DNA of 64,000 nucleotides, from positions 258,098 to 322,097 of the forward strand of contig JABWAT010000002.1 in NCBI GenBank assembly GCA_013360915.1, given 5' to 3'. Shown in pieces: positions 7,496 to 45,022 of the stretch. The position numbers were made by a program, and so were the translations under genes. Source of the DNA: Bacteroidota bacterium (lineage in GTDB: Bacteria > Bacteroidota > JABWAT01). Numbering within the stretch: the first letter of the stretch is position 1; every line of letters starts with the position of its first letter. Under the pieces are notes generated by a model. That model was not told where the DNA came from, made no database searches, and saw only the letters and a program-made list of their open reading frames with translations.

Positions 7496-8599
7496 ATGTC
7501 TATTTCGATGGTTGATCTGAAAAACCAGTACCTGAAAATCAAGCCAGAGGTCGATGCGGCCATTCAGAAGGTGCTTGATACAACCGCGTATATTGGTGGT
7601 CCTGATTGCGGAGAACTGGAATGTGAACTGGCTGGTTATCACGGTGTGAAACATGCCATCGGGTGTGCAAACGGAACCGATGCCCTGCAGATTGCCATGA
7701 TGGCCCTTGGAATCGGACCGGGTGATGAAGTGGTGACCACCGCCTTTTCCTTCGTGGCCACTACCGAAACCATTGCTGTGACCGGTGCACGTCCGGTTTA
7801 TGTGGATATCCATCCGAAAACCTTTAATATGGATCCGTCTAAACTGGAAGCGGCCATTACGGCCCGCACCAAAGCCATCATTCCCGTTCATCTGTACGGA
7901 CAACCAGCCGATATGGATGAGATTCTGCAGATTGCGGCCAAATACCGTCTGCCGGTGATTGAAGACAATGCCCAATCGATCGGAGCCTTGTACAAAGGGA
8001 AAAAAGCCGGGTCCATGGGACTGATTTCCACGACTTCTTTCTATCCTGCTAAAAACCTGGGTTGTTTTGGTGATGGTGGTATGATTTTCACCAATGATGA
8101 CCGTCTGGCCGAGAAACTGCGGATGATTGCCAATCACGGATCCCGGAAACGATATTACCATGAAATACTGGGACTGAACAGCCGTCTTGATACCATTCAG
8201 GCGGCCGTCCTGCGGGTGAAACTCAAATACCTCGATCAGTGGGCCACTGCCCGCCAGCAGGCAGCAGAAACGTATAACCGTCTGCTTTCCGGTTCGGGAG
8301 TGGTAACCCCGTTTCTGGCTCCCGACCGGACTCACGTGTACCATCAGTACTCGATTCTGGCTGATAAACGGTCTGCTCTTCAGGATTTTCTGAAAACCAA
8401 GGGTATTCCCACAGCGGTTCATTACCCGCATGCACTTCATTTGCAACCGGCTTTTTCGAACTATGGATTTATCGCCGGTGATTTTCCGGTGGCTGAAGAT
8501 GCGGCCAGCCGGATTCTCTGTCTGCCTATCCACACTGAAATGACGGCCGAGCAGCTTACCTTCATTTCAGAATCTATTCACCAATTTTATAAATCATGA
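7496..8599 (+). CDS. DegT/DnrJ/EryC1/StrS-family PLP-dependent sugar aminotransferase
   Basis: Conserved N-terminus (L..QY..I..E...A...VL....YIGGP...FE.E.A.Y.G.KHA...NGTDAL) and the ArnB/WecE-like layout. Confidence 0.85.
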   Translation: MSISMVDLKNQYLKIKPEVDAAIQKVLDTTAYIGGPDCGELECELAGYHGVKHAIGCANGTDALQIAMMALGIGPGDEVVTTAFSFVATTETIAVTGARPVYVDIHPKTFNMDPSKLEAAITARTKAIIPVHLYGQPADMDEILQIAAKYRLPVIEDNAQSIGALYKGKKAGSMGLISTTSFYPAKNLGCFGDGGMIFTNDDRLAEKLRMIANHGSRKRYYHEILGLNSRLDTIQAAVLRVKLKYLDQWATARQQAAETYNRLLSGSGVVTPFLAPDRTHVYHQYSILADKRSALQDFLKTKGIPTAVHYPHALHLQPAFSNYGFIAGDFPVAEDAASRILCLPIHTEMTAEQLTFISESIHQFYKS

Positions 8600-9330
8600 G
8601 TACCACTCCACAACCAAACCCGGTTCTGGTCATTGTGCCCACCTATAATGAGGTGGAAAATATTGACCGGCTTCTCTCCAGAATCCGTGCACAGGAAGTT
8701 CCGGTGGATATCCTGTTTATCGATGATAACTCGAAGGATGGCACCTCTGAGAAGATCAAGGCACACATGGCAGCCGATCCGCACATTGCCATTCTGGAAC
8801 GTCCCGGCAAAATGGGATTGGGAACTGCTTATGTGGCAGGTTTCAAGTATGCATTGGAACGTTCCTACCAGTATATCATGGAAATGGATGCCGATCTCAG
8901 CCATGATCCCGGCGAAATTCCCCGGTTTCTTCAGGCCGCTCAGGAGGCTGATATTGTGCTGGGCTCGAGATATATCACCGGTGTGAATGTTATCAATTGG
9001 CCTTTGAAACGACTGATTCTCAGTTATGGTGCCAATGTCTATGCAGGGTTGGTCCTTGGTACCAAAATCAAGGACATGACCGGCGGCTTTAAAATGTTCA
9101 GACGGGAGGTCCTGGAAAGTCTGGATCTGGACCGGTTAAAATCGAACGGATACAGTTTCCAGATTGAAACCACTTACCGTGCCCTTTGCAAGGGTTTTAA
9201 AGTCCGCGAAATCTCCATCATTTTTTACGACCGGACTGCCGGAAGCAGCAAAATGTCCAAAGCCATCGTCAGGGAAGCCATTATGATGGTATGGAAGCTC
9301 CGTCTTCGTCATCTGATCGGGCGGTTATAA
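8596..9330 (+). CDS. polyprenol-phosphate glycosyltransferase, GT2 (DPM1/ArnC-like)
   Basis: VIVPTYNE..NI, IDDNSKDGT and GLGTAYVAGF are diagnostic of dolichyl/undecaprenyl-phosphate sugar synthases. ATGA overlap with the aminotransferase. Confidence 0.8.
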   Translation: MSTTPQPNPVLVIVPTYNEVENIDRLLSRIRAQEVPVDILFIDDNSKDGTSEKIKAHMAADPHIAILERPGKMGLGTAYVAGFKYALERSYQYIMEMDADLSHDPGEIPRFLQAAQEADIVLGSRYITGVNVINWPLKRLILSYGANVYAGLVLGTKIKDMTGGFKMFRREVLESLDLDRLKSNGYSFQIETTYRALCKGFKVREISIIFYDRTAGSSKMSKAIVREAIMMVWKLRLRHLIGRL

Positions 9331-9337
9331 CCCCGGC

Positions 9338-11179
9338 ATGGATGTTTCGGTCATCATTGTCAGCTACAATGTCCGGTCCTACCTGATCAATTGCATCCGG
9401 TCGGTCCAGGAAGCATCGCCCGGCTGGAAGGTGGAGATTATCGTGGTTGATAATGCCTCGGATGATCAGAGTACCGAGGCTGTATCAGCTGCCTTTCCTG
9501 ATGTGAAACTGATACGGAATCCGGTCAATGTCGGATTTGGGGCCGCCTGCAACCAGGGCGTTCAGGTGTCGGCCGGCCGGTATATACTTTTCCTGAATCC
9601 GGATAGTCTGGTGGACCGTCCGGTATTTTCCACCCTGATTCCCTACATGGATGCCAATCCGTCGGTTGGTCTGACGGGCTGCAAAATTCTCAACGAGGAT
9701 GGAACCCTTCAGCCTGCCTGCCGCCGGTCCTTCCCAACCTTATGGGTTTCCTTCACCCGGCTGTCGGGGCTAAGCCGTCTGTTCCCGCACTCCAAGCGGT
9801 TTGCCCGGTACAACCTGACCTATCTGGATGAAAACGAAATGGCTGATATTGACGCAGTATCGGGTGCTTTCATGTTCGTCCGGCGCGAGGCCTTTGACCA
9901 GACAGGCGGTTTTGACGAAGATTATTTCATGTATGGCGAAGACCTGGACTTGTGCTATCAGGTCAGAAAGGCCGGTTTCCGGGTGGTGTATCATCCGGCT
10001 ACCACGGTGATTCATTTCAAAGGCCGCAGCAAATCGGTTCATGTCGATACCCGGTACCATTTCTATGAATCCATGAAAATTTTTGCCCGGAAACATGGCA
10101 GCGGGAATCCGGTCTTTATCGGACTGCTGAATCTGGCCATTACCTTCCGGTATCTGCTTGCAGCCTTCCGTGAACGATCGGCCGGCTTACTGACCGGGCT
10201 GACCGATGTAATCAGTCTGCTGATTCTGTTCGAAAGTCTCAGCGCCATCAGGAATGGCCGGTTGTTCGGATATCCGGATTATGCCTACCCGGTCATATTT
10301 ATTGTTCTGATTTTCGTTCAGGTGGCGGTTTACCTGTCGATGGGCGTCTATGAGTCGGCAACACCCCGCAGGCGGCGGGTGATACTGGCCTCGGTGGTGA
10401 CCTGGGTGATTGTGAGTCTGTCGGCCTATTTTTCAAAAGATTTTGCGTTTTCCCGACTGGTGCTGTTCGGATCCTTCCTGGCGGTAACAGCCACTCATGT
10501 CGGATACCGGGAACTGATCCGGTTAATGAGCCGGGTTCCACAGAGCCGCCGGGTCGTGGTGCTTTCCGGTCCGGATGGATTGGCGGGTTCTCCCTGGTTC
10601 GAACTGAGGGTGGTTTTTCAGCACCGGATGACACTGAAAGGCTATCTGTTCGGGAAACCGGTATCCAATAACAGCCAACAGGTGGAAGGATTGTGGTCCG
10701 ATTTACCCGAACAAATCCGCAAAAACCGGATTACCGATGTGGTTCTGGATACCGGGGTGATGGATTTTCAGGCACAGGTTCACTGGATTCAGTGGTGCAG
10801 GGAAGCGGGTGTTCATGTGGAACTGCTTTCCGTCACCGGTTTGAAAGAGACTCTGTTAAATGATATTTTGCGCCAGCCTGATCGGACCGGACTGGTGTAC
10901 CGGCTGGTTAAACGAATCACCGATTGGTGGGTGATTCGTGGGTTGGGCGTTGCAGGTGAAGGGAGAAAGGAACCCGGAAAATTCTGGATCGGTAATCCCG
11001 ATAAAGCCAGAAGACCGGCAGTCTTTACAGCCCATTACCTGTTAAATGATTGTTTTCCGCAGATTCAACGGGAAGAAGACCGCTATCTGCTGACGCTATT
11101 TTATAACCGGTTCCATTCGGTTGCCATGGACCGGCTGATTATGGAACGACTTGTGAAAAGGAGGGAAGACCGTGCCTAA
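9338..11179 (+). CDS. GT2 glycosyltransferase fused to a multi-TM plus CoA-binding-like C-terminal module
   Basis: N-terminal 300 aa is GT2 ([30 protein letters not shown]). Then about 4 TM helices and a C-terminal region resembling the WbaP central domain ([14 protein letters not shown]...ITDVVLD). Confidence 0.6.
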
Positions 11180-22054: not shown

Positions 22055-24169
22055 ATGAACCGACTCGTGCTTTTGTTAACAGGGGCCTTCCTGTTTTCTG
22101 ATGTGATTCTGGTGACCGCCCAACCCGATTTGTTTTTTGGGACGCGGGGAACAGGAAATCAGTTCCCCGGTGCAACTGTGCCACATGGGATGATATCCCT
22201 TTCCCCGCATACCAATTCTTCTCACCCGGTTGGTTATTTGGCTGGTGATTCAGTTATCCACGGTTTCGGCACCGTTCATCTAAGTGGTGCATCCTGGCCG
22301 GTTTTTGGTGGAGTAACGGTCATGCCGGGTGTTGATGGCCGTTTTTCTGCTGTAAAAAAAAATGAAAGGGCAGTGCCGGGTTTTTATCAGGTTGAGCTGC
22401 AGGAAACCGGTATTACTGCATCCATGGCTGCCTCTGTTCGATCCGGGTTGTTTCATTTCAGATGGAATCAGTCACAAGCAGGGAAACGGCAGATTCGAAT
22501 CGGTCTGAATGATCAGCTTGGGGGTCCGCAAAGCGGATTTACAGAAATCATCAATTCCTCAGAAATGGTTGGTTATCAGGCGGGTCGATCGTACGGACCC
22601 TCTGCGGTTCCCTACACAATTTACTATGTGCTCCGTTTCAGTGAACCTGCTGCATCCATTGAAATCAAAACCAGATACAACAGCCAGTTTCCAGTCAGTC
22701 CCACTTTGTTTCTGAAGGATTCGCTCACCGTAGCCGATCTGAGTTTTGGAAATCAGGCCGATTCTGTTCTGGTTCAGGTGGGCGTTTCCTTCGTTAGCAT
22801 TGCCAATGCAAGGCTTAATCTGGAATCGGAATTGCGTGGCTTTGATTTCGGATCAATTCAGCGGGTAGCTGCCAGTCTGTGGCAGGAAGCATTGGGCCGC
22901 GTGTCGGTGGCAGGCGGAAGCGATCATTTTCGGACCCTGTTTTCGACGGCACTTTATCACAGTCTCTTGCTTCCTATGACTTTTTCTGATGTGAACGGAG
23001 AGTACCCAAGACCGGGAGGAGCTGGCGTGAATCAGACCACCGGGACCCAGCTAACTGCTCTTTTTCTCGATTATGGGTGGCGGACCCACTATCCGCTTCT
23101 GAGTTTTCTGTATCCGGAAACCATGCTACAAGTTCAATCCTCCATACTGAACATCGCCGAATCGCAGGCCTGGTTACCGATGACCGAACTGGCAGGAAGG
23201 GAAACCTTTCAGGCAGAGGGTGATCCGGCCACCATGGTTCTGGCTGACAGCTGGTTTCGTGGCATGGTCCCGGCCAATCCGGTCAGGGCCATGTCCTGGA
23301 TGGTAAAGTCAGCATCGGATACGCTGCGCCGGAATCCCATTCGTCCCGGATTGGAAGATTACATCCGGTTGGGCTATATGCCGGCTGATGCCGACCAGCC
23401 CGATGCGTCGGTGATCCAGACACTTGATTATGCCCGGTCCGATTTTATGCTGGCCCGCCTGGCCGATACCCTGGACATGCCCAATGTAAGGAAGGATATG
23501 CGTCGGCGCGCTGCTTTGCCATTTTCGCTTTGGGATCCGGTTCAAAACCGGTTCCTGCCCCGGAATGATCAGCGCGGAGTGGTGCAAACGACTGCAGATC
23601 CGCGTTTCTGGCTTTTCAGGTATGACTGGTCAAGGCAAACACTGACCGACTCGCTGGGAGGTATGAAGGACCTGTTAAAGGTTCTGGTTTCCATGATCAG
23701 GAAAAACCAGATATCTCTTTCAGACCCGGTTCAGGCAGAGTGGCCCTTGTTTTTCATGCAGGAGAAGGCCGAAGTCTGGCGGGCCCATCAGGTTTACCGT
23801 GATTATCTGTTAAAAACGTATTCAGCGGGTGTTAATGATTACGCGGCATCCAATGAAGGCGCTGCGGAATCTTCCAGACTGGTCTGGCTGATGATGGGAT
23901 TGTATCCCGAGCAAACCGGACGAACGGGATATTTTCTGATTCCCCCGGCCTTTGAGACAGTAACTGTTCAGAGGGGCGGACGGCTGAAGGATCAGAGATC
24001 CATCATAATTGTGGCGGAAAAGCAGAGACCAGCCAACTACTTTATCAAAGAGGTCTCCTGGCGTGGCAAACCGGAGGAGGATTATTTCATTCCCCATCAC
24101 TCGCTGATAAGAGGAGGCGAACTGAAACTGGAAATGAATCCCCGGATCGTCCAGGTATTAATGGATTAA
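22055..24169 (+). CDS. glycoside hydrolase family 92-like protein (putative alpha-mannosidase)
   Basis: Signal peptide. N-terminal GNQFPGATVPHGMISLSP matches the GH92 GxTFPGAxxPFGMxQxSP motif. C-terminal MMGLYPEQTGRTGYFLIPPAFETVTV matches the GH92 C-terminal block. Shorter than typical GH92 enzymes. Confidence 0.55.
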   Translation: MNRLVLLLTGAFLFSDVILVTAQPDLFFGTRGTGNQFPGATVPHGMISLSPHTNSSHPVGYLAGDSVIHGFGTVHLSGASWPVFGGVTVMPGVDGRFSAVKKNERAVPGFYQVELQETGITASMAASVRSGLFHFRWNQSQAGKRQIRIGLNDQLGGPQSGFTEIINSSEMVGYQAGRSYGPSAVPYTIYYVLRFSEPAASIEIKTRYNSQFPVSPTLFLKDSLTVADLSFGNQADSVLVQVGVSFVSIANARLNLESELRGFDFGSIQRVAASLWQEALGRVSVAGGSDHFRTLFSTALYHSLLLPMTFSDVNGEYPRPGGAGVNQTTGTQLTALFLDYGWRTHYPLLSFLYPETMLQVQSSILNIAESQAWLPMTELAGRETFQAEGDPATMVLADSWFRGMVPANPVRAMSWMVKSASDTLRRNPIRPGLEDYIRLGYMPADADQPDASVIQTLDYARSDFMLARLADTLDMPNVRKDMRRRAALPFSLWDPVQNRFLPRNDQRGVVQTTADPRFWLFRYDWSRQTLTDSLGGMKDLLKVLVSMIRKNQISLSDPVQAEWPLFFMQEKAEVWRAHQVYRDYLLKTYSAGVNDYAASNEGAAESSRLVWLMMGLYPEQTGRTGYFLIPPAFETVTVQRGGRLKDQRSIIIVAEKQRPANYFIKEVSWRGKPEEDYFIPHHSLIRGGELKLEMNPRIVQVLMD

Positions 24170-26610
24170 GTGATGCGGATGACCACAATGGTCATGTCAT
24201 CGTGCTGAGGAGCCTGCCCGCAGAATTTCCTCACTTCATCATTGATGGCCGTAATAATCGCCTGTGCAGGTTTTCCCGATTGATGACGGATTGCCGCGAG
24301 TAAACGCTCCTCTCCGAATTCCTCACGGGATTCATTCATGGCCTCGGTGTATCCGTCGGTGTAGAAAACAATGATGTCACCCGGGCTTAGAGACACGGTC
24401 TGATCTTTGATCACCTTCTCGAAACGGTCACCACGTTCCATTCCGAGAGCCAGTCCCTCCGGTTTCAGGTTTTCAGTTTTTCCATCACCCAGCAACCAGA
24501 CAGCCGGATTGTGGCCCGCCCGGGCAATGGTCATGGTCCGGGATTCTGCATCGAGTATGGCATAAAACATCGACACAAAATTTCCTTTTTCGATGGTACG
24601 TGAAAGCAATTGATTCACTTTCGTCAGTACCCGCGAAGGAAGGGTTCCCGATTCAGCATTTGACTGAACAATTCCTTTGGTCAGTGTCATGTAAATGGCG
24701 GCAGGGAGACCCTTTCCGGACACATCACCAACTGCAATTCCCATTTTGGTCGGACTGATGGCGATATAATCGAAATAATCACCCCCGACTTCCAGAGCGG
24801 GGATACAGGCACCGGCGATATCTGCACCCGGAAAGGCCGGACTTGATTTTGGCAGCAGTTTTAATTGAACCTGTCGTGCAATTTCCAATTCCCGTGATAA
24901 CCTCACCCGTTCAGTGATCCGGCGGATGTGAGCTGGTGTGGTATCGGGATTGTATGAAAAGGCCTCTTTACGGATAAAGCCACTGATTGCAAATCCGGCC
25001 GGAATGCAGATGAGCAGGGCGGCCGGAACGGACACCATCCAGAAAGCCGACGGGTCTGCAAAGACAAAGGGAACCAGAGAAACCAGACTGGCAACCGTGA
25101 AGTTGGCCATGATGGCAGTCAGAACATCCCATCTGATCATCAGCCAGGTGAAGTACAGACCGGCCAGGAAAAGAAAAACCAGCGTTGGAATGGCATCATT
25201 CAGAAAGGTAACGTTCCAGAAGGATACGGCATAAAACATCCAGAGAGTGTTCGAAACCAGAATGCCGGCCCACTGGTTTTTGAGACGTCTTGAAAAGTAT
25301 TGATTTCCGAATAACCGGAAAATTAATTCTGCGGTGAGTGAGCCGGCCACTCCGGCCAGAATGGGGTTAATAGCTGGCATCCATGAACTCCAGGCAGGCG
25401 TATAGTTGGAAAGAACCGTTTTCCCACCTGCCAGAATCACGACCAACATTCCGATCACCATCAGACCCAGCAGGGTAAATCCGGCCAGATACCCTCTGCT
25501 GACAGAGATTGCCAGTTGAAGGGTGCTGAACTGCCGGTTGAGCAACCCATCGAGGGCGGCCATTTTCTGGCTGTGCTGTTCCCTCAGATAAGATTCACCG
25601 ATGCTCCAGGCCGTAAAGGCAGCCAATGCGGCAACCGGATTGAAAATGAGCAGCCGGCCGGTCAGCTGAACCACTGCAATCCAGTCAAAACTGAGTTCCC
25701 CAAGTCCCCATCCGAAGGGGGACACCGGAAGCATATTGATGGTATCGACTGAAAGCACCAGCCATGTGAGCCAGAATACCATTTTGGCCGAGGAAACGCC
25801 GACTTCTCCTTCGTGGTATTTTTTCAGAAAGGTAGCCAGCAGGAAGGCCAGAACAATGATAAAAGCAAAAGCAGAAATGTTCCCACCTAATACCGCTAAT
25901 GAATTGGATTGTGCTTCGTCACTCCGGTAGCTGGTTGGCAACTCGACGTTCATATCGAGAAAAGTATTTTCGCTGCCTGCAATCAGGACACCAAGCCGGA
26001 TGGTGGTTTTCAGAACAGAATCAGGTTTATAAAACCAGAATTGATGATCGGTGCGTTGTTCCCGACGGTTAGACACCACTTCCTTTTCACGGAAACCGGT
26101 AGTATCGATGCCAAAGCGCAGAATCTGATTAATTGCAGACTGTCTGGCTTCTTCCGGGGTCAGGTGGGCAGGACCCCATTCCTGGTTTTCAATACCAGTC
26201 AGGGTGAAATCATATCCTGTGATTTTTCCGGTCGGGGAGAGGTAAACCTGAAACTGCCGCTGAGGTGAGCTTCTGGCCACATTTTTATAAAAGTACACCA
26301 TCCAGTAGGGGGAAATCAGACCGAGCGAATCATGACGGCTCAACACCATGGCTGTGTCATAATCGGTTACATGCCAGGCATAACCAAACCGGTCATCTCC
26401 GAAAAAGCGGGCCGTCACCTCATATTCTTCAACGGGGTATCCGCGTTCCTTCAGAAACCCCTCAGCCCTTTCTATGACCAGAGACCGGCCTGCAGTCATT
26501 TCATGATTACGTACAGGGAGAACATACGGAAGTCCGATCCAGAAAATCAGAAATCCAAGTAGTCCGGCGATCAGCCAACGGGCAGACCAGTTATCTGGTT
26601 TTGGTTGCAT
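24166..26610 (-). CDS. membrane sensor PP2C/SpoIIE-family serine/threonine phosphatase (TM, periplasmic domain, ~10 TM, PP2C)
   Basis: C-terminal EVGGDYFDYI...GDVSGKG...TDGYTEA are PP2C signatures. N-terminal single TM, ~220-aa extracytoplasmic domain, then a polytopic 7TM-DISM-like block. Confidence 0.7.
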   Translation of the reverse strand: MQPKPDNWSARWLIAGLLGFLIFWIGLPYVLPVRNHEMTAGRSLVIERAEGFLKERGYPVEEYEVTARFFGDDRFGYAWHVTDYDTAMVLSRHDSLGLISPYWMVYFYKNVARSSPQRQFQVYLSPTGKITGYDFTLTGIENQEWGPAHLTPEEARQSAINQILRFGIDTTGFREKEVVSNRREQRTDHQFWFYKPDSVLKTTIRLGVLIAGSENTFLDMNVELPTSYRSDEAQSNSLAVLGGNISAFAFIIVLAFLLATFLKKYHEGEVGVSSAKMVFWLTWLVLSVDTINMLPVSPFGWGLGELSFDWIAVVQLTGRLLIFNPVAALAAFTAWSIGESYLREQHSQKMAALDGLLNRQFSTLQLAISVSRGYLAGFTLLGLMVIGMLVVILAGGKTVLSNYTPAWSSWMPAINPILAGVAGSLTAELIFRLFGNQYFSRRLKNQWAGILVSNTLWMFYAVSFWNVTFLNDAIPTLVFLFLAGLYFTWLMIRWDVLTAIMANFTVASLVSLVPFVFADPSAFWMVSVPAALLICIPAGFAISGFIRKEAFSYNPDTTPAHIRRITERVRLSRELEIARQVQLKLLPKSSPAFPGADIAGACIPALEVGGDYFDYIAISPTKMGIAVGDVSGKGLPAAIYMTLTKGIVQSNAESGTLPSRVLTKVNQLLSRTIEKGNFVSMFYAILDAESRTMTIARAGHNPAVWLLGDGKTENLKPEGLALGMERGDRFEKVIKDQTVSLSPGDIIVFYTDGYTEAMNESREEFGEERLLAAIRHQSGKPAQAIITAINDEVRKFCGQAPQHDDMTIVVIRIT

Positions 26611-26819
26611 AGAATATCTCTGGCAAAAAAGCTAAAGGTCGCAGGAACGTGAGACGGATTCAAGACCCGATAACAGGCAATGGTTAAATCTGATTTTGTT
26701 AACCTCCCGTTTAAAAAACATCTGAGAGGATAATCATGAAGGGTGTTCTTTAATCAGGTGGTCATTTGCCCGACAAACAAGTTACAGACCTTTGTGCCTG
26801 AAATGAAAGGGAGAAAACC

Positions 26820-27632
26820 ATGAAACCAAACATCCTTGCATTGGCCGGACTATTGATTCTGATGATTCCTGCAGGTTTGGCTGCACAGACCGGAAAAATT
26901 TCGGGCCGGGTGATCGGGGACCACACTCAGGAACCACTTTCCGCTGCCACGGTCATCATCAGTGTGAAAGGGGAAGCCAGGCAATCGGTGCGGTCAAATG
27001 CCAACGGAAATTTCAGTTTTTCAAATCTTGAACCCGGCACCTATGACCTGATTGTGAACAAGAAGGGATACAACCGGTTCAGCAAAGCTGTTCGTGTGAA
27101 TCCGGATTTCACTCTCAGACTGATTATCCCGGTGGAAGGCGGAGAGAAGCCCGTTTCCAAAGGAGTCCTGATTGCATCAAACTCATCAAAATCAGTGGAA
27201 GTAAAGCAACCCGGGCTGACCCAGATCAAACCCGTTGCCGACCAGATACAGGGGGCAGAACCAGGGCCTTCGGCCGATACATCTTCAGAATATCCGGGGC
27301 TGCAAACCATACCTGAAGAAGTTCCTGCTGATGTTCTGGTAGACTATCCTGATACCGAACCGGCACCTGAAGGTGGGCTAAAAGCGGTGATCAGGAATAT
27401 CGAGTACCCTGATCAGGCGATCCGGATGTTTATTCAGGGAAAAGTGGTTGTTTCGGTTTTAGTGAACAGCAAGGGAGAGCCCGAGCGTGTGGATGTTCTG
27501 ACAAGTGCACACCCGGTTCTTAGTGAAGCAGCCATCAACACCATTTACAAAACCAGGTTCATTGCGGCAACTCAGGGAGGAAGGGCCATCAGTGCAAGAG
27601 TCAATCTTCCGGTCCAGTTTGTGCTGCGCTGA
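26820..27632 (+). CDS. secreted protein with CarbopepD_reg-like N-terminal domain and TonB C-terminal domain
   Basis: Signal peptide. GKISGRVIGD...ATVII...ANGNFSFSNLEPGTYDL is the carboxypeptidase-regulatory-like fold. The C-terminal 90 aa matches TonB_C (EPAPEGG...GKVVVSVLV...G.P.RV). No N-terminal membrane anchor or Pro-rich spacer. Confidence 0.5.
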   Translation: MKPNILALAGLLILMIPAGLAAQTGKISGRVIGDHTQEPLSAATVIISVKGEARQSVRSNANGNFSFSNLEPGTYDLIVNKKGYNRFSKAVRVNPDFTLRLIIPVEGGEKPVSKGVLIASNSSKSVEVKQPGLTQIKPVADQIQGAEPGPSADTSSEYPGLQTIPEEVPADVLVDYPDTEPAPEGGLKAVIRNIEYPDQAIRMFIQGKVVVSVLVNSKGEPERVDVLTSAHPVLSEAAINTIYKTRFIAATQGGRAISARVNLPVQFVLR

Positions 27633-27639
27633 ACGCGGG

Positions 27640-29901
27640 TCAGCGAACCACCTGAAGGTTTGCGAATTTCAGAACCAGGGTTTTTACGCCGGCTCCGATG
27701 AAATGAACCACTGCCTTTCGGGTATCACCGGACCCGGCTACCGATTCAACCCGTCCCTTGCCGAACTTGGCATGCTGAACATATACCCCAGCGCGGATAT
27801 CTGCCTGACCGGAGTCATATACCACCGTTCGTTCCTTTGAGGATGATTTCTGGTTTTTGTATTTCTCATCGCGCCAGTAATATGGATTTTTCTGGCTGTA
27901 TTCTTCACGGCTGCTGTCACCCAATCCGGTCATGAAGGCGGCCTGACGTGGCTTGGATTCGGCCTGAACCCGACCTTCGGTCCTGATGTGAGTGAGGTCC
28001 ATTTCGTCAATAAACCGGCTTCGGATGGTATACTCTGACTGGCCAAAACGGAAACGGGTCTTGGCATGGGAGAGGAAAAGGAGTTTTTCGGCCCGGGTGA
28101 CACCCACATAGCACAACCGGCGTTCTTCTTCCATCTGGCGGGGATCATCCATGGCTCCGGATAGAGGGAAAAGTCCATCTTCCAGTCCGGCAAGAAACAC
28201 CACGGGAAATTCCAATCCTTTCGCTGCATGAAGGGTCATCAGCGTCACCGCATTTCGTTCGCCATCCAGATTATCCACATCGGTCACCAACGCCACTTCC
28301 TGCAGAAAGGCATCCAGGCTGGCATCGGTCCTGCCCGCGGCAAATTCCTCGATGGCATTGATCAGTTCCTGCACGTTTTCCACGCGAGCCCGACCTTCCT
28401 GTGTCTGTTCCTGACCGAGATCGCGAAGAATTCCGACCTGCTCAATGTAGGTTCTGATCAGAAGACCCAAAGGGGAATTGGACAAGTTGGACCGGGTTGA
28501 CTGAATGGCTTGCCCGAGTTCAGTCAGTGACTGACGTTGTTTGGCGTTCAGTCCGCCGATCATATCGGCCGACTGAAGCAATTCCACCGGACTCCGGTTG
28601 GCCTGATGCGCATAGTCCAGTAACCGGTTTAAAGCCGTTTCACCGATTCCGCGTGCCGGATAGTTGATGATCCGCCGGAAACTTTCCTCGTCTTTCGGAT
28701 TGATCAGCATTTTCAGATAGGCAAGAACGTCTTTGACTTCCTTGCGCTTGTAAAACTGGATGCCCCCGATAATGATATAGGGAACGGAAATGCGGCGGAG
28801 GCCATCTTCCATGGCACGGCTTTGGGCATTCGTCCGGTAAAGGATGGCAAAATCCCGGTTCTGGTACCCTTTTGTGATTTTAAGATTCTGGATGCAGGCT
28901 GCAATTTTTGTCGATTCATCCCGCTCAGAATCTGCTTCAATCAGGGTGATGTGATCACCTTCCGGGTTATCGGTCCAAAGGGTTTTCTTAATCTGGTCCT
29001 TATTTGCTTTAATAACAGAGTCGGCTACTGATAATATCCGTTGGGTAGACCGGTAATTCTGTTCCAGACGGACGACCCGCGCTTCGGGATAGTCTTTTTC
29101 GAAATCAAGGATATTCTGAATATCGGCCCCGCGCCAGGAGTAAATGGACTGGGCATCGTCTCCCACCACGCAGATGTTGCGGTTTTTAGCGGCAAGCATT
29201 TTCGAAATCAGATATTGCGCACGGTTCGTATCCTGATATTCATCGATCATCAGGTAACGAAACTGATCCTGATACCGGGCGAGACTTTCGGGACGTGCTT
29301 TGAACAGTTCGATGGGTTTCATGAGCAGGTCATCGAAATCCATTGAATTGGCTTCTTTCAGCCTGACCTGGTATTCCTCATAAACCTCGGCGGCCTTTAC
29401 ATCGGCCGGGAAAACAGCAGCCTGGTGAAAATCGGCCGGGTACCACATCCGGTTTTTGGCAGACGAAATTTTCGACATGATCATCCGGACGGGGAATTGC
29501 TGGGTATTCACCTGCTTATCTGCCAGAATCCGTTTGATGAGGCTTTCCTGATCCTCGGTATCGTAAATGCTGAATTGTTTGGTATAGCCAATTTTATCGG
29601 CTTCATATCGAAGGATCCGTGCAAACACCGAGTGGAAGGTCCCCATCCAGATTCCCTTGCTGATGGTCTCGCCGGTAATGGCCGAAATACGACCCTGCAT
29701 TTCACGCGATGCTTTGTTTGTAAAAGTCAGGAGGAGCAGTTGCCAGGGCTGGGCATGCTTTTCAGCAAGCAGGTGGGCGGCGCGGAAGGTCAGCACACGG
29801 GTCTTTCCGGAGCCGGCGCCGGCAATAATCATGACCGGTCCGGCCACAGTGGCAGCCGCCTCGCGCTGGCGCTCATTCAATTCATCTAAAAATCGGGACA
29901 T
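27640..29901 (-). CDS. uvrD: ATP-dependent DNA helicase UvrD/PcrA family
   Basis: MSRFLDELNERQREA...GPVMIIAGAGSGKTRVLT (Walker A). UvrD helicase motifs present throughout. 753 aa. Confidence 0.85.
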   Translation of the reverse strand: MSRFLDELNERQREAAATVAGPVMIIAGAGSGKTRVLTFRAAHLLAEKHAQPWQLLLLTFTNKASREMQGRISAITGETISKGIWMGTFHSVFARILRYEADKIGYTKQFSIYDTEDQESLIKRILADKQVNTQQFPVRMIMSKISSAKNRMWYPADFHQAAVFPADVKAAEVYEEYQVRLKEANSMDFDDLLMKPIELFKARPESLARYQDQFRYLMIDEYQDTNRAQYLISKMLAAKNRNICVVGDDAQSIYSWRGADIQNILDFEKDYPEARVVRLEQNYRSTQRILSVADSVIKANKDQIKKTLWTDNPEGDHITLIEADSERDESTKIAACIQNLKITKGYQNRDFAILYRTNAQSRAMEDGLRRISVPYIIIGGIQFYKRKEVKDVLAYLKMLINPKDEESFRRIINYPARGIGETALNRLLDYAHQANRSPVELLQSADMIGGLNAKQRQSLTELGQAIQSTRSNLSNSPLGLLIRTYIEQVGILRDLGQEQTQEGRARVENVQELINAIEEFAAGRTDASLDAFLQEVALVTDVDNLDGERNAVTLMTLHAAKGLEFPVVFLAGLEDGLFPLSGAMDDPRQMEEERRLCYVGVTRAEKLLFLSHAKTRFRFGQSEYTIRSRFIDEMDLTHIRTEGRVQAESKPRQAAFMTGLGDSSREEYSQKNPYYWRDEKYKNQKSSSKERTVVYDSGQADIRAGVYVQHAKFGKGRVESVAGSGDTRKAVVHFIGAGVKTLVLKFANLQVVR

Positions 29902-29907
29902 GGGGAC

Positions 29908-32436
29908 TTAATCCAGTTTTCCTAAATAGCGTAGTACAAAAACCGTCATGTCATCATCGTGGTCACGGCCGGCTGCGAATGAATCGCAGGCGTCGAACAT
30001 CGCACGGGTGATCATGGCCGGCTGAAGCCAGGTACGGGTGATCCGTTCGGCTGCATGGTCGAATCGTTTTTCCTCGAACCACATGACATCATCCGGATTG
30101 GTTCGTTCGGTGAACCCATCCGAAGTGGCGATCAGGACATCTCCCGGATTTAATTGAAACGACAGCGTGCTGAGTTCAAAGTCGGGGATCATGCCCAATG
30201 GGGGACCAGTCAGTTCAAGAACCGTGAAGGTATCTTTTTTTGCGTTGTAATAAAAGGGAAAGGGCATTCCGGTCGAGCACATCTCCACACGGTTCCGGTC
30301 CAGATCGAGGACCATCAGCGTCAGGCCCATTCCGATTCCTCGGTTCCGGATGGATTCACGGAGAGCCAGGTTGAGGTTTTTAACCAGTTTCTCCATGGGA
30401 AGGTCAATGTTGTAGGATCGGATGGAATTGATCAGTGCCATTTTCAGCATACCGACCACCAGTCCGGCACCCACCCCATGACCGGTTGCATCCCCGATGG
30501 CCAGACACCAGCGGTTTTTATCGATATGAATCACATCGTAATAATCGCCACCCACTTCTGCGGCGGTCCGCATCCCTGCATCGATCAGAACAGAAGGATG
30601 AATAGCCAGTGATTCGGGAAGCATATCGAACTGAAGCCGTCGTGCAAATTCCAGCTCTTCCGATTTCCTTCTCAGGTCCATCTGGAGCAATTGCTCTTCC
30701 TTTTCCTTTTGAAGGAGCAGGACTTCTTCTTCCTTGGCCTTTCTCACCGATTCAATCATCTGGTTGAAGGAACGGGTAAGGTACCCGATTTCATCGTCCT
30801 CACGCACCGGCACCCGCACATCGAGGTTACCGGCATTTACCTGACGAACCCCATGAAGTAAAATCCGGATGGGGCGCACCACCGTCAGGCGGAAAAAGGA
30901 AGGGAAAACCAGAATCACCAACAGAGTGGAAGCCACAATCATGATGATAAAAACACTGGAACCCTGATGGATGTAATTCCGGTGTTCCTGGTAGAAGTCC
31001 TCGAAAAATGCCCGGCCGGGAGGTGTGGTGACCGACACGCCCGAACTGAAGTTTACCGGAAATCCTTCGCCACCGGTTCCGGGATCTGCACCGATATATC
31101 CCGGTAAGACCGGACTGAGTCCGATGTAACTCATCCGGATACGGCCATCCGGAAAAAAGAGAACCTGAAAACTGTTCGAGGTCCGGCGTCCGAAATCGGG
31201 AACGCCCAGCCAGGTCACCGAAACCAGTGAATCCGATTGGTGAAGCAGAACAGACCCACCCTGTTCCGGATTCAGATCTTTGAACAGGATGGCCAGTTTT
31301 GGGGTTGGCCGGTAAAATTCAAAGACCAGATAACTGCGGATGGCTTCCCGGAAGCTGACCATTCCATTGGCGGAAACCCAGATCTGGCGGTAGTTTTCGC
31401 CAAAAAAAGGAAAGGAAAAGGGGAGGGACACGGTATCGGCGCCGGCATCGGTCAGAAGCAATCGCTGTTTTCCCGGAGTTTTCCAAAGCGGAGGTCCGGT
31501 GGCGATCCGGTAACCACCATTGACCAGCGGAATCAGATCAATGGTTTTCATATCGGGGGCCCGGCGTGTGAAATCGTAAATCTCGCTCAGTTTCGACATG
31601 GTTGCTGAACCGACGGTGCTGAGGACAACCAGAATCGTTACCATCGAAACCACAATGATTTTACGGGAAATGGTAGATGGTTCCGGTGATAATTTGAAGT
31701 AGGCAAGAATAAAGGAGAACAAAAAGAGCAGCCAGGCAGCGTTGGAAAAATACAGGTTGGTCTGTTCCGAAATCAGGCTGGCGTGAAACAACACATTCAG
31801 CAGCGTGGGAACCGACCCCAGCAACACAATTCCTGCCAGCAGGATCAGATCCCGGAATGGTTCAAGCGATTCATCCCTTCCGCCGGCAAGGCTTTTTAAC
31901 AGCGTTCTGATCAGACGGCGGTGATAGGCCAGGGACCAGAAGTTCAGCGGATTCCGGTCGGTGACGGGTACCATGGCCTGGCGGACCAGAAGAACCACGG
32001 CCCATGCAAAACCGGTAAGAATCAGCAGGTTGTATGCAATCTGTTCTTCGGGGATGTAATGCTGGTAAGTGACCATTCTGAAAGTCAGAACCGCAGCAAA
32101 CACCACCAGAACTGCCGTGCCGGTGATTCCCATGACTTTCATTTCTCTGACAAAATTCAGCCGAGGGTAGTGATAGGCATATTGATTAAACAGCAGGATG
32201 GCCCCGCCCAGCAGCACATACCGGATGGGGATGAGAAACTTAGCCCAGAAATCGAGCAGGGAAGAAGCGAGAAAACCGGTGAGAAAAAAGCTGCTGATCA
32301 GAAGAAAAAACAGCAAACGGTACCAGCCGCGGGTATGACGTTTCCGGCTGATTACGAAAAAAACCGCAATCAGCGTGGACAGCAGAAACTGTGAAAACGC
32401 ACTGATGGAAAACTGATTAAAATAGAAATCGGGCAT
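29908..32436 (-). CDS. membrane sensor PP2C/SpoIIE-family phosphatase (N-terminal 7-8 TM, extracytoplasmic domain, HAMP, PP2C)
   Basis: HAMP-like segment (VVRPIRILLHGVRQVNAGNLDVRV...LTRSFNQM), coiled coil, PP2C motifs (EVGGDYYDVI, GDATGHG, TDGFTE). N-terminal polytopic block plus a ~200-aa extracytoplasmic insert. Confidence 0.7.
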   Translation of the reverse strand: MPDFYFNQFSISAFSQFLLSTLIAVFFVISRKRHTRGWYRLLFFLLISSFFLTGFLASSLLDFWAKFLIPIRYVLLGGAILLFNQYAYHYPRLNFVREMKVMGITGTAVLVVFAAVLTFRMVTYQHYIPEEQIAYNLLILTGFAWAVVLLVRQAMVPVTDRNPLNFWSLAYHRRLIRTLLKSLAGGRDESLEPFRDLILLAGIVLLGSVPTLLNVLFHASLISEQTNLYFSNAAWLLFLFSFILAYFKLSPEPSTISRKIIVVSMVTILVVLSTVGSATMSKLSEIYDFTRRAPDMKTIDLIPLVNGGYRIATGPPLWKTPGKQRLLLTDAGADTVSLPFSFPFFGENYRQIWVSANGMVSFREAIRSYLVFEFYRPTPKLAILFKDLNPEQGGSVLLHQSDSLVSVTWLGVPDFGRRTSNSFQVLFFPDGRIRMSYIGLSPVLPGYIGADPGTGGEGFPVNFSSGVSVTTPPGRAFFEDFYQEHRNYIHQGSSVFIIMIVASTLLVILVFPSFFRLTVVRPIRILLHGVRQVNAGNLDVRVPVREDDEIGYLTRSFNQMIESVRKAKEEEVLLLQKEKEEQLLQMDLRRKSEELEFARRLQFDMLPESLAIHPSVLIDAGMRTAAEVGGDYYDVIHIDKNRWCLAIGDATGHGVGAGLVVGMLKMALINSIRSYNIDLPMEKLVKNLNLALRESIRNRGIGMGLTLMVLDLDRNRVEMCSTGMPFPFYYNAKKDTFTVLELTGPPLGMIPDFELSTLSFQLNPGDVLIATSDGFTERTNPDDVMWFEEKRFDHAAERITRTWLQPAMITRAMFDACDSFAAGRDHDDDMTVFVLRYLGKLD

Positions 32437-32490: not shown

Positions 32491-32964
32491 TCAGCGTTGT
32501 TTTCCGGTTGGCACCCTCAGCAGCGAATCGGCTGTTTTCAGGGCGGTGGCAGACAAGTCGATGGCCTGTCTGATTCGTTGGGAAACAGTATCCAGACTGG
32601 CCATTTGCCGGTCAAGAATGGCGGTAACCTGTTCATGGGAGAGCGCTTCATAATCCGGCTGACCCAAATCGGGCATTACCACATTCATTTTCTGAATGGC
32701 CGATTGAACCGCAGATGAGGCAGAATCAGTCAGGGTGCGGATCTGGGCAGCATTCATCAGAGAGCCTGCTCTGGATTCAAGGGTCAACCGGATGGAATCC
32801 AGTTTTTTCTCGACGGACATCAGGTAGCGGTGATGTTTCATTTCTACATGATGAATGCTGTCAATTTCGGCATATTTACTCATTTCCTGTCTCATGTCGG
32901 AATCTGATTTTCCGCACGACCACAACAAAAAAGCGGAAAAAGATGCGATCACAATGGATTTCAT
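32491..32964 (-). CDS. hypothetical lipoprotein
   Basis: Start chosen at MKSIVIASFSAFLLWSCGK (lipobox LWSC). Helical, no recognisable domain. Confidence 0.4.
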   Translation of the reverse strand: MKSIVIASFSAFLLWSCGKSDSDMRQEMSKYAEIDSIHHVEMKHHRYLMSVEKKLDSIRLTLESRAGSLMNAAQIRTLTDSASSAVQSAIQKMNVVMPDLGQPDYEALSHEQVTAILDRQMASLDTVSQRIRQAIDLSATALKTADSLLRVPTGKQR

Positions 32965-42292: not shown

Positions 42293-42898
42293 ATGAGTAA
42301 AACTGCAATCATTCTCCTGAGCATCTTTGGAGGATTTCTGGTCCTGGCTCTTGTTATCGGACTCTGGCTGGCCGGTCAGTACAACACCATGGTCACCCTG
42401 AACGAAACCGTGGACAATGCCTGGTCCAAAGTTCAGTCAGACTATCAGCGGAGATCCGATCTGATTCCCAATCTGGTCAGCACCGTGAAAGGATTTGCCG
42501 GCCAGGAACAAACGGTTCTGCTGGGTGTCACCGAAGCCCGTTCCCGGGTGGGACAGATGAACGTATCAAAGGATGTACTTGATGATCCTCAGGCGTTTAA
42601 ACGGTTCAGCCAGGCCCAATCGGAACTTGGTGGTGCTTTGAGCCGCCTTCTGGTTGTTTCAGAAAACTACCCGCAGCTGAAGTCGGATGCCAACTTCCTT
42701 GACCTACAGGCTCAGCTGGAAGGCACCGAAAACCGCATCAAGAAATCACGTGATGATTTTAACAATACGGTTCAGGCTTATAACACTGCAATTAAAACAT
42801 TCCCCAAGGTTCTTCTGGCCGGATTGTTTGGTTTTAACCCCAAGCAATATTTCGAAGCCTCTGAAGGATCGGAAAACGCACCAAAGGTTGAATTTTGA
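42293..42898 (+). CDS. LemA family membrane protein
   Basis: N-terminal TM, then QYNTMV.L.E.VDNAWS.VQS.YQRRSDLIPNLV.TVKG, which is the LemA signature. Confidence 0.8.
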   Translation: MSKTAIILLSIFGGFLVLALVIGLWLAGQYNTMVTLNETVDNAWSKVQSDYQRRSDLIPNLVSTVKGFAGQEQTVLLGVTEARSRVGQMNVSKDVLDDPQAFKRFSQAQSELGGALSRLLVVSENYPQLKSDANFLDLQAQLEGTENRIKKSRDDFNNTVQAYNTAIKTFPKVLLAGLFGFNPKQYFEASEGSENAPKVEF

Positions 42899-43704
42899 TC
42901 CGTCAAATTCTGCTGACCTTTCTTCTTTGTCTGGGACTGGCTTTTCCGGCCAGTGCTCAGACGGTTGAAGACATCATTCAGAATAAAAACTGGGTGATGG
43001 ATTATGCCGGACTGTTTTCCCCTCAGGCATTTGAGTACGCATCCGATTCCCTCTACCGGTTTTCGACCCGTACCGGCAATCAGATCAATATTCTGACTTT
43101 GAAGGAGATTCCGAATGGGGAGGACATTTTCACCTTTTCGATGAAAGTCGCTGAGGGACGACGGATTGGTCAGCAGGGATTGGATAACGGTGTTCTGGTT
43201 GTCATCACCACCACCGGAAGACGGGAATTCAGAATTTATCCCGGCCGTGGCCTTGAAGCGGTACTTCCCGATGCCTCTATTAAGCGTTTTTTCAGGGAAG
43301 TGGCTGTGCCGCTGCTTAAAGCGGGTGAGTTTGATAATGTACTGATGGTGACCATCGGGTTTATAGCCCGCGCCGCAGAAGGTGAGTTTGCCGTTGCAGA
43401 AAAGAAGAAAGACGGTCCGGTTGTTCCCGGTATTGCCTTTGTCATCTTTATCGTTGTTATGATCCTGTTATTCTCAGTCCTTTCCCGATTGACCCGCCGG
43501 TCCCGGTCATTGGGAATTCATCCCGGAACCGGAAAACGGTCCCGCCCATCAACCGATGCCTCTGCGCTTCCCTTTATTCTGCCACTGATTTTTGGTAGTG
43601 GCCGCGGGGGTGGTGGATTCGGGGGTGGTTCATCGGGCGGATGGGGCGGATTTTCGGGGGGCGGCGGTTCCTTCGGAGGAGGAGGCAGCGGTGGAAGCTG
43701 GTAA
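42895..43704 (+). CDS. TPM-domain (TLP18.3/Psb32/MOLO-1) protein with Gly-rich C-terminal tail
   Basis: Signal peptide. DYAGLFS...GNQI.ILTL...FS. C-terminal TM and GGGGFGGGSSGGWGGFSGGGGSFGGGGSGG tail typical of YgcG-like TPM proteins. ATGA overlap with lemA. Confidence 0.75.
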   Translation: MIRQILLTFLLCLGLAFPASAQTVEDIIQNKNWVMDYAGLFSPQAFEYASDSLYRFSTRTGNQINILTLKEIPNGEDIFTFSMKVAEGRRIGQQGLDNGVLVVITTTGRREFRIYPGRGLEAVLPDASIKRFFREVAVPLLKAGEFDNVLMVTIGFIARAAEGEFAVAEKKKDGPVVPGIAFVIFIVVMILLFSVLSRLTRRSRSLGIHPGTGKRSRPSTDASALPFILPLIFGSGRGGGGFGGGSSGGWGGFSGGGGSFGGGGSGGSW

Positions 43705-45022
43705 AAAGATTGGGTTCATCGGTTTGGCTCTTGCCATTCTCTCCGCATGTTCCACACAACGTCAGAGTTCGGTCCAACAAGACTTAGATGCCTATACCGG
43801 TGCCAACCGGTCTGTTGCCTTTACGAAACTGACCGAAAAGGAAACTGGCTACCCGTTGGTCATTCTGGATTATACACTTGATCTGAAGCGGACCACACCG
43901 GTTGAAATTGCCTTTTTCGATCAGTTTCCGGTTTTTTTCAGTCAGGATATCCGAATCAGGACCACCTCTTCTTTCAGTGGCCCTGTGTACCTTCCGGCGC
44001 CGGTGCCACGTTTTTCATCCTCGGTGGATCTGTATATCTCCGTCCTCCACAACGGTGAGTGGAAAACGTATGTGACTAATGATCTTCAGTCATTTCTGAA
44101 AACGTACAAAGGTCGGTATGAACCAGGCTGGGACAGCTCTCCCCATTTTGTTATGGATGGAATTAAGCCAGATACCGAAATCCATCTCAGCCTGGTACAG
44201 CAGTTTTCATCACAGGAAAACACCATCCCTGTCGTTTTCCCCGGGAAGGCCTTTTTACGACAATTTTCCTTCAGTCTGAACCAGAAAACCGATTGGGGCG
44301 GCATTGACCTGTTAACCACGTTGCCTTTACTGAAAACTGAAAATCAACGTTCAACGCTCGTAGATGATATGTTGACTGAAGGTGTGGTTAAAACATCCAA
44401 CACCATTAAACCACTATCCGTCCTCGAATTCCGCAATTGGGAAATTTCACCTGCCGATTACCTGATTGTCTCTAAACCAGGGCTTTCTGTGAGCCCGGTA
44501 ATTCAGGAGTCCGGAAAACCGGTTTGTTTCAATCCGGTTAATGGGCCAACGGATCCGATTGCGAACAGACTGTTAAACCGTCTGATCTGGCCCGGCCTGG
44601 ACTTCTCTGAATTTCGCAGAAATCCCTGGATCATTTCCTTTGTTTCCGATTTAAGGGAAGCAACCGGCAATGACAGCATTGCGGTGATTTTTCCAGGAAA
44701 AAACACAGAAAAGCGCGATCACATTACCCGATGGATGAAAAAGGCTGTTTTCAATGAACAAACACTGGAAACCGGCATACCTCCCCTTTTTGCGGGCATC
44801 TACCCCGAGTGGCCGCTTCTGGTTACCGGTTTTTCCTGGATGATCAGCAGCAAGGTCGAAACCGTCAGCATGAAAATCGGTCCGGCGGAACCATACCAGT
44901 CTTCTGTCCTGTTTTTCATTCCGACAGATTCATCAGAAAATTCCACTGGTAATTCCTATAATTTCGATTTTTCGAAATCGTCTGCTGTTAAAGTTTATTG
45001 GTTATTTCCTCAGAAAAAATAA
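43691..45022 (+). CDS. hypothetical lipoprotein (third gene of the LemA-TPM operon)
   Basis: Proposed GTG start at 43691 gives MEAGKKIGFIGLALAILSAC (lipobox). No recognisable domain. The ORF track's upstream ATG at 43592 lies deep inside the TPM gene. Confidence 0.45.
   Translation: MEAGKKIGFIGLALAILSACSTQRQSSVQQDLDAYTGANRSVAFTKLTEKETGYPLVILDYTLDLKRTTPVEIAFFDQFPVFFSQDIRIRTTSSFSGPVYLPAPVPRFSSSVDLYISVLHNGEWKTYVTNDLQSFLKTYKGRYEPGWDSSPHFVMDGIKPDTEIHLSLVQQFSSQENTIPVVFPGKAFLRQFSFSLNQKTDWGGIDLLTTLPLLKTENQRSTLVDDMLTEGVVKTSNTIKPLSVLEFRNWEISPADYLIVSKPGLSVSPVIQESGKPVCFNPVNGPTDPIANRLLNRLIWPGLDFSEFRRNPWIISFVSDLREATGNDSIAVIFPGKNTEKRDHITRWMKKAVFNEQTLETGIPPLFAGIYPEWPLLVTGFSWMISSKVETVSMKIGPAEPYQSSVLFFIPTDSSENSTGNSYNFDFSKSSAVKVYWLFPQKK

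Follow-up and report, generated by a model that had tools for sequence, protein, structure and literature searches.

Two large membrane proteins, each ending in a PP2C phosphatase domain, are encoded near a uvrD helicase gene in a 64-kb stretch of Bacteroidota DNA, referred to below as the window. We consider it likely that these proteins, here named P1 (814 amino acids (aa); 24166-26610, minus strand) and P2 (842 aa; 29908-32436, minus strand), are two independent, orphan sensor phosphatases of the RsbU/SpoIIE type, that their STAS-type substrates are encoded at unlinked loci and that the gene order around them is specific to the lineage. Each protein would be a single-polypeptide transmembrane transducer, in which an extracytoplasmic or membrane input controls the cytoplasmic PP2C domain through a helical linker. 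The input of P1 may be formed by two periplasmic PepSY-like repeats together with a membrane domain of the CPBP/Abi fold, and its signal may pass on through a conserved juxtamembrane helix. P2 may sense through a block of eight transmembrane (TM) helices and a NIDO-like domain and pass its output through a HAMP domain and a coiled coil, perhaps aided by a lipoprotein encoded just upstream. In both cases, a signal from the envelope or membrane would cause the phosphatase to dephosphorylate a STAS-type protein whose gene lies at another place in the genome.

The catalytic domains place both proteins in one enzyme family. The SpoIIE model of Pfam (PF07228; cut-off 25 bits) matched P1 with 173.9 bits (E 4.6e-51; aa 620-813, 24172-24753, minus strand) and P2 with 131.4 bits (E 5e-38; aa 640-837, 29926-30519, minus strand), and no PP2C-type (PstP-like) Pfam model was found in scans of either protein. 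An initial annotation of this DNA had described two minus-strand open reading frames (ORFs) of these lengths and positions, both ending in SpoIIE/PP2C domains, and on these points it was accurate. In P1, the PP2C motifs GGDYxD, GDVSGKG, TDG and HDDMT and the metal-coordinating residues D611, D614, D629, D752, D804 and D805 are invariant in all 19 P1-family sequences aligned. In P2, the motifs read GGDYYD, GDATGHG, SDG and DDDMT, and these as well as the equivalent aspartates D631, D634, D649, D773, D828 and D829 are invariant in the six P2-family orthologues. Since the positively charged loops of both P1 and P2 face the cytoplasm, both PP2C domains are cytoplasmic. On a 620-kb contig of a Bacteroidota metagenome-assembled genome, NCBI names the P1 entry (NUQ80941.1, an exact match) "PP2C family protein-serine/threonine phosphatase" and the P2 entry (NUQ80944.1) "SpoIIE family protein phosphatase".

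By sequence, the nearest solved relatives of both domains are an RssB-type PP2C response regulator (3eq2), Rv1364c, SiaA (6k4e) and SpoIIE. RsbU/SpoIIE-subfamily PP2Cs such as these act on STAS-like partner-switch proteins. The NCBIfam equivalog cut-offs for RssB, SiaA and SpoIIE were missed widely by both proteins: the SpoIIE equivalog (TIGR02865; cut-off 490.8 bits) gave 35.6 and 38.2 bits, and the SiaA equivalog (NF038263) gave 71.9 bits for P2 and 42 bits for P1 against a cut-off of 700. Judged by their sequences, P1 and P2 are members of the RsbU/SpoIIE-type PPM family and not orthologues of any characterised enzyme. With RsbU and SpoIIE of Bacillus subtilis they share the PF07228 domain, the metal-binding aspartates, an N-terminal regulatory module and a helical linker, and SpoIIE also has ten N-terminal TM segments (PMC11418112; PMC12088040). 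Unlike those proteins, P1 and P2 have sensors of unrelated sequence, no adjacent STAS, kinase or sigma factor genes and no link to sporulation or cell division. P2 also has the TM-HAMP-PP2C layout of SiaA from the SiaABCD biofilm switch of Pseudomonas aeruginosa, and the SiaA model matches it over aa 497-836 (E 3.9e-20). In contrast to SiaA, P2 has a much larger sensor, comprising eight TM helices and the NIDO-like domain, and no siaBCD-like neighbours; SiaB-, SiaC- or SiaD-like genes were not found among the window ORFs.

The substrates are most likely phosphorylated STAS-type (anti-sigma-antagonist-like) proteins, to be sought outside the window. In a Pfam scan, none of the 55 non-overlapping ORFs of at least 60 aa in the 64 kb encoded a STAS protein, stand-alone HATPase_c_2 kinase, sigma factor or Hanks kinase, and local STAS and RsbW/SpoIIAB profiles gave no STAS or RsbW-type match among all ORFs of at least 50 aa. 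Both searches agree with the initial annotation, which had noted that STAS, anti-sigma kinase and sigma factor genes were missing. HATPase_c_2 was matched only as part of a hybrid histidine kinase (47049-50810), and no intergenic gap exceeds ~270 nucleotides (nt), which is too short to conceal a gene of 100 aa. When GTDB was scanned with the P1 sensor profile, 82 species representatives matched, none of them the window's own species and the best with 40% identity to P1; 80 were kept and 79 loci were analysed (loci of relatives are numbered L###, homologous proteins P00##). The P1 family is therefore present in at least 82 GTDB species, with the labels Bacteroidota, KSB1, Calditrichia, Ignavibacteriota, Aminicenantes and Chlorobi-like. 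A STAS gene lies within 10 kb at three of the 79 loci and at none of the other 76, and an RsbW-type kinase gene does so at two, one of them L077, where it is just upstream. Unlinked partners are thus the rule for the P1 family, and the genomic context does not name the substrate. It follows that the lack of linked STAS and RsbW genes in the window is no anomaly, and the proposal that standard RsbU/SpoIIE circuitry fails to explain the arrangement falls away.

In L087, the STAS gene immediately precedes the P1-family gene and has the same orientation. That of L034 and L063 comes after a gene for a HATPase_c_2-HAMP-PP2C-TPR fusion, and obg, dprA and gltX lie between STAS and the P1-like gene; we therefore rejected this STAS protein as the partner of P1 in favour of the upstream fusion as its more likely partner. 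The 1,262-aa fusion, whose kinase domain is RsbW-like and whose phosphatase domain is SpoIIE, and the 235-aa STAS protein that follows it form a compact partner-switching module (L063 668-5310; L034 1-3453).

Alternatively, both PP2Cs could oppose Hanks-type Ser/Thr kinases, as eukaryotic-like Ser/Thr kinase and phosphatase pairs (eSTK/eSTP) do, rather than partner-switching kinases. The near absence of STAS genes from P1-family loci is consistent with this, and Hanks kinase (Pkinase) genes occur near the P1-family gene at four of the 79 loci, where they adjoin it or a tandem PP2C gene (L044, L067 and L077) or lie 8.8 kb away (L027). This linkage, however, is as rare as that of STAS, and the window itself has no Pkinase gene. 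The strong PF07228 matches, with no PstP-like model found, and the identity of the nearest solved relatives also argue for partner-switching substrates, and we regard opposition to Hanks kinases as unlikely.

Directly beside P2 lies the helicase gene (27640-29901, minus strand), which encodes a PcrA/UvrD-type superfamily 1 (SF1) helicase of 753 aa (NUQ80943.1, "UvrD-helicase domain-containing protein") with Pfam matches to UvrD-helicase (E 1e-89), UvrD_C and a tudor domain; its score against NCBIfam pcrA, 861.6 bits, falls just below the cut-off of 911.2. The P2 stop codon is 6 nt ahead of the uvrD start (TAA-GTCCCC-ATG). On the other side of P2 is a small ORF (32491-32964, minus strand; the mechanical ORF extends to 33051) that encodes a predicted lipoprotein. 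Because the 6-nt junction between P2 and uvrD has no terminator-like site, the small ORF, P2 and uvrD probably form one transcription unit. P1 is a separate, monocistronic transcription unit, since a gene on the opposite strand sits between P1 and uvrD. This gene (26820-27632, plus strand) encodes a 270-aa protein with an N-terminal signal or TM segment, a CarboxypepD_reg domain (E 7.4e-16) and a TonB_C domain (E 2.1e-16; NCBIfam tonB_Cterm). The initial annotation had placed both phosphatase genes on one strand around the UvrD and TonB_C genes; P1, P2 and uvrD do all lie on the minus strand with those two genes in between, but the TonB_C gene is on the plus strand. P1 is divergent from the TonB_C gene and convergent with a GH92 gene, with a coding overlap of 4 nt (24166-24169), and the stop codons of the convergent TonB_C and uvrD genes are 7 nt apart (27632-27640). 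These tight convergent ends leave no space for terminators. A scan for promoters was uninformative, as sigma-70-like sites were no more numerous than in shuffled sequence.

Comparison with related genomes shows that the position around uvrD is a matter of lineage-specific gene order and that the proximity of P1 is limited to the immediate genus. The full layout of lipoprotein, P2, uvrD, TonB_C, P1 and GH92 genes recurs in L009 only, where P2 is 93% and P1 86% identical to the window proteins. Both uvrD and P2 are missing from the surroundings of the P1 orthologues in L007 and L008 (47% identity), and no UvrD gene was found within 10 kb at any of the 79 analysed GTDB loci of the P1 family. The trio of lipoprotein, P2 and uvrD genes is kept at ~50% P2 identity in L010 and L096 (L012 belongs to the lineage of L096), where 91-258 nt separate the genes. 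The UvrD proteins of these two loci are 70% identical to that of the window and 89% identical to each other. Upstream, collinearity with the window takes in a DEAD-box helicase gene at both loci and, in L096, asd and lysC as well. Downstream of uvrD, the lineages with the trio have different genes. Adjacency to uvrD is lost in the distant P2 orthologues, at 41% and 40% identity, which are followed by an integrase gene (L013) and a transporter gene (L015). Of two metagenome scans, the one that used the P2 sensor profile gave no match, and the one with full-length P2 orthologues as the query found one true orthologue, that of L096. The PP2C-uvrD-PP2C arrangement singled out by the initial annotation is thus absent outside L009, and P2-uvrD is not kept beyond a shallow clade. 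The arrangement requires no new biology, and the neighbourhood appears to be a lineage-specific accident of gene order.

Several features of these loci stand apart from that comparison. Neighbour sets of P1-family genes follow clades, and the idea of a universally conserved neighbour was rejected, given that the commonest neighbour family occurs at 13 of 82 loci. In one clade (L041, L046, L057, L062, L071, L072, L080 and L082), the P1-family gene is preceded at 21-103 nt by a RecG gene in the same orientation, invariably together with one 389-aa neighbour, and this represents a second, independent adjacency of a helicase and a PP2C gene. A block of Exo_endo_phos, response regulator, 690-aa histidine kinase and TerC genes directly follows uvrD in L010 (8588-14063); in L008 (2878-8612), L016 and L019 it precedes the P1 orthologue by 1.4-7 kb. 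This common block hints at an ancestral, loose linkage of P2-uvrD and P1. In L013 (3188-12846), P0069, the P2 orthologue, is followed by a tyrosine integrase gene and more than ten small ORFs that lack a Pfam match, which looks like a mobile-element insertion where other lineages have uvrD.

The adjacency to uvrD could be taken to mean that the envelope signals to DNA repair. On this view, P2 (and the lipoprotein) and uvrD would make up a functional operon, the phosphatase would adjust the activity of UvrD/PcrA or of a stress regulon to which UvrD belongs, and P1 would provide a second input into that pathway. The 6-nt junction would fit this, as would persistence of the trio in the window and L009, in L010 and in L096/L012 in spite of differing downstream genes, and the RecG genes upstream of P1-family genes at eight loci of another clade. 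However, the lineages that keep the trio are close, with UvrD identities of 70-89%, and have the upstream collinearity as well, and uvrD is absent both beside the distant P2 orthologues and from the 79 P1-family loci. The RecG linkage, with its constant 389-aa neighbour, is a single clade-level event. To our knowledge, there is also no precedent for SpoIIE-type PP2Cs that act on SF1 helicases. We consider coupling of P2 to repair quite improbable, and it is very unlikely that both helicase linkages (P2-uvrD and RecG-P1) reflect signalling from the envelope to DNA repair. In this clade, P2 and uvrD probably share a transcript, and this sharing would carry no regulatory meaning.

Four points weigh against the picture of two orphan phosphatases with unlinked STAS-type substrates. 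First, the 64-kb window has neither a STAS nor an RsbW gene, so the substrate class is inferred only. Second, linked STAS genes and linked Hanks kinase genes are so few in the P1 family (3/79 and 4/79 loci) that context is silent on the substrate. Third, the 6-nt junction of P2 and uvrD, an adjacency kept while the downstream genes differ, leaves room for a link at the level of the operon. Finally, the fold assigned to the P2 sensor rests on borderline NIDO sequence scores and a poor structural model, both given below.

The independence of the two proteins is evident from their sensors. The initial annotation had called P1 and P2 paralogous, with permuted sensor modules, and read them as duplicated and diverged. 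In a BLASTP comparison, only the PP2C domains aligned, at 30% identity over 251 aa, and a profile-profile comparison (hhalign) of the two sensor halves returned a probability of 0.3%. Sensors that are permuted or homologous were ruled out by these two results, and each protein belongs to an orthologue family of its own. The common strand, the spacing of 3.3 kb and the similar overall length and C-terminal domain might suggest that one sensor phosphatase was duplicated in tandem at this locus and that its domains were then shuffled. However, the score of the PP2C domain of P2 against P1 from its own genome (70 bits) is no higher than its scores against members of the P1 family in other phyla (70-88 bits). 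The sensor profiles show no relationship and the two families have their own wide or separate distributions, and such a duplication is extremely unlikely.

Two PP2C genes 3.3 kb apart are only mildly unusual, since, beyond 3 kb, other PP2C genes occur in the flanks of P1-family loci at a density of ~6 per Mb. Nine GTDB loci of the P1 family have another PP2C gene within 10 kb, and in five of these it is a tandem HAMP-SpoIIE gene for a protein of ~870 aa. We considered these partners as possible P2-like proteins and rejected them: they have the HAMP region alone in common with P2, and the PP2C domain of P2 is no closer to theirs than to those of the P1 family. The tandem genes (encoding ~865-873 aa, with sensors that are not homologous to that of P2) follow the P1-family gene in L044 (36-5166), L047 (515-5873), L063 (9914-15132), L077 (5550-11347) and L085. 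Hanks-type kinase genes adjoin the tandem pair in L044 and L077.

What novelty there is lies, modestly, at the level of domains: a pseudo-CPBP/PepSY input in P1 and an unnamed 8-TM/NIDO-like input in P2. Both input modules are candidates for annotation models and provide a way into the study of how Bacteroidota-related phyla that have received little attention sense their envelope. The initial annotation had proposed a search for 7TMR-DISM domains; neither protein matched the Pfam models 7TMR-DISM_7TM or 7TMR-DISMED at E up to 0.01.

From hydropathy and the helices of an AlphaFold2 (AF2) model, P1 has one TM helix, a periplasmic region of ~200 aa and then nine more TM helices, and the topology first proposed, of one TM helix, a ~220-aa periplasmic domain and ~10 TM segments, was roughly right. 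TM helix 1 (aa 8-30 in both hydropathy and the model; 26521-26589, minus strand) follows a cytoplasmic N terminus. The periplasmic domain (aa 31-225; 25936-26520, minus strand) leads into the polytopic membrane domain (aa 226-547; 24970-25935, minus strand), and a juxtamembrane linker (aa 548-619; 24754-24969, minus strand) connects this to the PP2C domain. The AF2 model of aa 1-560, built on a 12-sequence alignment, was confident (predicted local distance difference test (pLDDT) 82.8, predicted TM-score (pTM) 0.82). A Foldseek search of the PDB with the sensor model found no match. In the model, the periplasmic domain is predicted to consist of two tandem PepSY/YpeB-like repeats, each with an alpha helix on a four-stranded sheet. 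P1 itself gave no PepSY or DUF4901 sequence match, in which it differs from YpeB/PepSY proteins, as it does in its context as a phosphatase sensor. The membrane domain matches the CPBP/Rce1-like family (PF02517) in both sequence (E 7.3e-6, 26.6 bits, cut-off 22.4) and fold, and is without the catalytic residues of the proteases.

Unlike the Rce1/CPBP (type II CAAX) intramembrane metalloproteases, the whole P1 family lacks the catalytic Glu, His, His and Asn/Asp. Motif 1 reads AELIFR in P1 and xELxFR in the family, and the His is absent at the motif 2 and motif 3 positions; nowhere in the family are the first Glu of EExxxR, the His of FxxxH or the His and Asn/Asp of HxxxN/D conserved. The stand-alone relatives P0028 and P0029 (1,113-1,116 aa), which combine CPBP with DUF4901/YcdB-YcdC repeats and have no PP2C domain, retain SEEFLFR, FGH and WHYxxD. 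Because the catalytic motifs are lost family-wide and kept in the stand-alone homologues, the membrane domain of P1 is, as far as its sequence tells, a pseudo-protease, and would serve as a binding or scaffold module rather than as an enzyme. That P1 is instead bifunctional, an active CPBP intramembrane protease fused to a phosphatase, deserves next to no credence given this family-wide loss of every catalytic residue that P0028 and P0029 keep.

Other parts of the P1 sensor are strongly conserved. The motifs FLKKYHEGEV, after TM helix 2, and WSxGExxxR are invariant in the family, and the linker carries near-invariant columns (HIRRITERxR..ELEIARxVQ) in the 19-sequence alignment. This linker helix would transmit the signal to the PP2C domain. 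A functional parallel exists in SpdC/LyrA of Staphylococcus aureus and Abx1 of Streptococcus agalactiae, which are separate Abi/CPBP-fold proteins that act on histidine kinases; SpdC and Abx1 modulate sensor histidine kinases by binding the TM helices of the kinase (PMC5854430). In contrast to these, the Abi-like module of P1 is covalently fused to a PP2C output and is preceded by the PepSY-like repeats, so that P1 looks like a SpdC/Abx1-type module joined directly to its own output. With at least 82 species representatives, the P1 family is a widespread and uncharacterised fusion of a predicted pseudo-protease CPBP/Abi module and PepSY-like repeats with PP2C. We suggest, tentatively and with considerable doubt, that it constitutes an undescribed signalling input module, in which PepSY-like repeats and a dead CPBP/Abi domain are wired to PP2C across Bacteroidota, Ignavibacteriota, Calditrichota and KSB1 as a fused equivalent of SpdC/Abx1 modulation and report a membrane- or envelope-borne ligand or partner.

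P2 is built differently, with eight TM helices, an extracytoplasmic region of ~200 aa, a ninth TM helix that runs into HAMP and a coiled coil, much as the initial annotation had described it (7-8 TM segments, a ~200-aa domain, TM, HAMP and coiled coil). The N-terminal block (aa 8-283; 31588-32415, minus strand) was placed by hydropathy and by AF2 helices of low confidence, with the N terminus outside and the positive loops inside, and no Pfam model matched it; for the 7TMR-DISM models this held at E up to 5. It is followed by a beta-rich, NIDO-like domain (aa 284-488; 30973-31587, minus strand), by TM helix 9 and HAMP (aa 488-565; 30742-30975, minus strand; hydropathy peak at aa 488-523, HAMP E 1.6e-12 at aa 515-565) and by the coiled-coil linker (aa 566-639) that precedes the PP2C domain. 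The NIDO match (PF06119; cut-off 25 bits) is borderline: the full protein scores 19.9 bits and the domain taken by itself 24.8 bits, and the match covers only positions 2-56 of the 186 in the profile. The orthologue P0069 scores 30.5 bits, and ten of 23 homologues of the P2 module match NIDO. The AF2 model of the P2 sensor was poor (pLDDT 51, from a 4-sequence alignment) and was left out of the fold search.

Word-based searches gave only three full-length relatives of P2, while an exhaustive profile search gave 10,425 matches at E up to 0.001. Among the best 150 of these, ~25 contain the whole module of 8-TM block, NIDO-like domain and TM helix (profile positions ~3-526). In 23 homologues of the module, the accompanying domains were HAMP (21), HATPase_c (15), HisKA (13), a receiver domain (9), Guanylate_cyc (4) and SpoIIE (4). 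The sensor histidine kinases and cyclases with this input are homologous to P2 across its whole sensor and differ in their output, which is HisKA/HATPase_c, a receiver domain or Guanylate_cyc, as opposed to PP2C in P2. The 8-TM, NIDO-like and HAMP module, common to phosphatases, histidine kinases and cyclases, appears to be a reusable input domain that, as far as Pfam and NCBIfam show, has neither a model nor a name. The NIDO-like domain (~aa 290-470 of P2) also occurs in 3-15 copies in giant proteins (P0071-P0217; up to 5,642 aa), which are presumably surface proteins.

Read from Met30, the small ORF upstream of P2 encodes a protein of ~157 aa with a lipoprotein signal peptide and lipobox MKSIVIASFSAFLLWSCGK, and this protein had no Pfam or NCBIfam match. 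Homologues lie directly upstream of the P2 orthologues in L009, L010, L011 and L096, with 38% identity in L010 (E 9e-27). It is plausible that the lipoprotein acts as a periplasmic co-sensor of P2.

Other parts of the window contain features of separate interest. In the region 1-11179, the first ~6 kb have a GC content of 0.32-0.43 compared with ~0.51 elsewhere, the genes include glycosyltransferase, Polysacc_synt, Bac_transf and DegT genes, and a PDDEXK_3 nuclease gene (7056-7427) sits at the GC transition. This region is probably an acquired or variable surface-polysaccharide locus. Minus-strand ORFs of 788, 306, 368 and 120 aa that lack a Pfam match occupy 57860-60226, 61771-63725 and 55786-56148, and adjoin genes for an ABC ATPase (60302-61774) and for a protein with a weak SBP_bac_5 match (56124-57842). 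A cluster at 42293-45022 comprises genes for LemA, TPM_phosphatase and a 476-aa protein that has no Pfam match. At 13 of 82 loci, the P1-family gene likewise has a TPM-domain gene 0.5-3.7 kb upstream.

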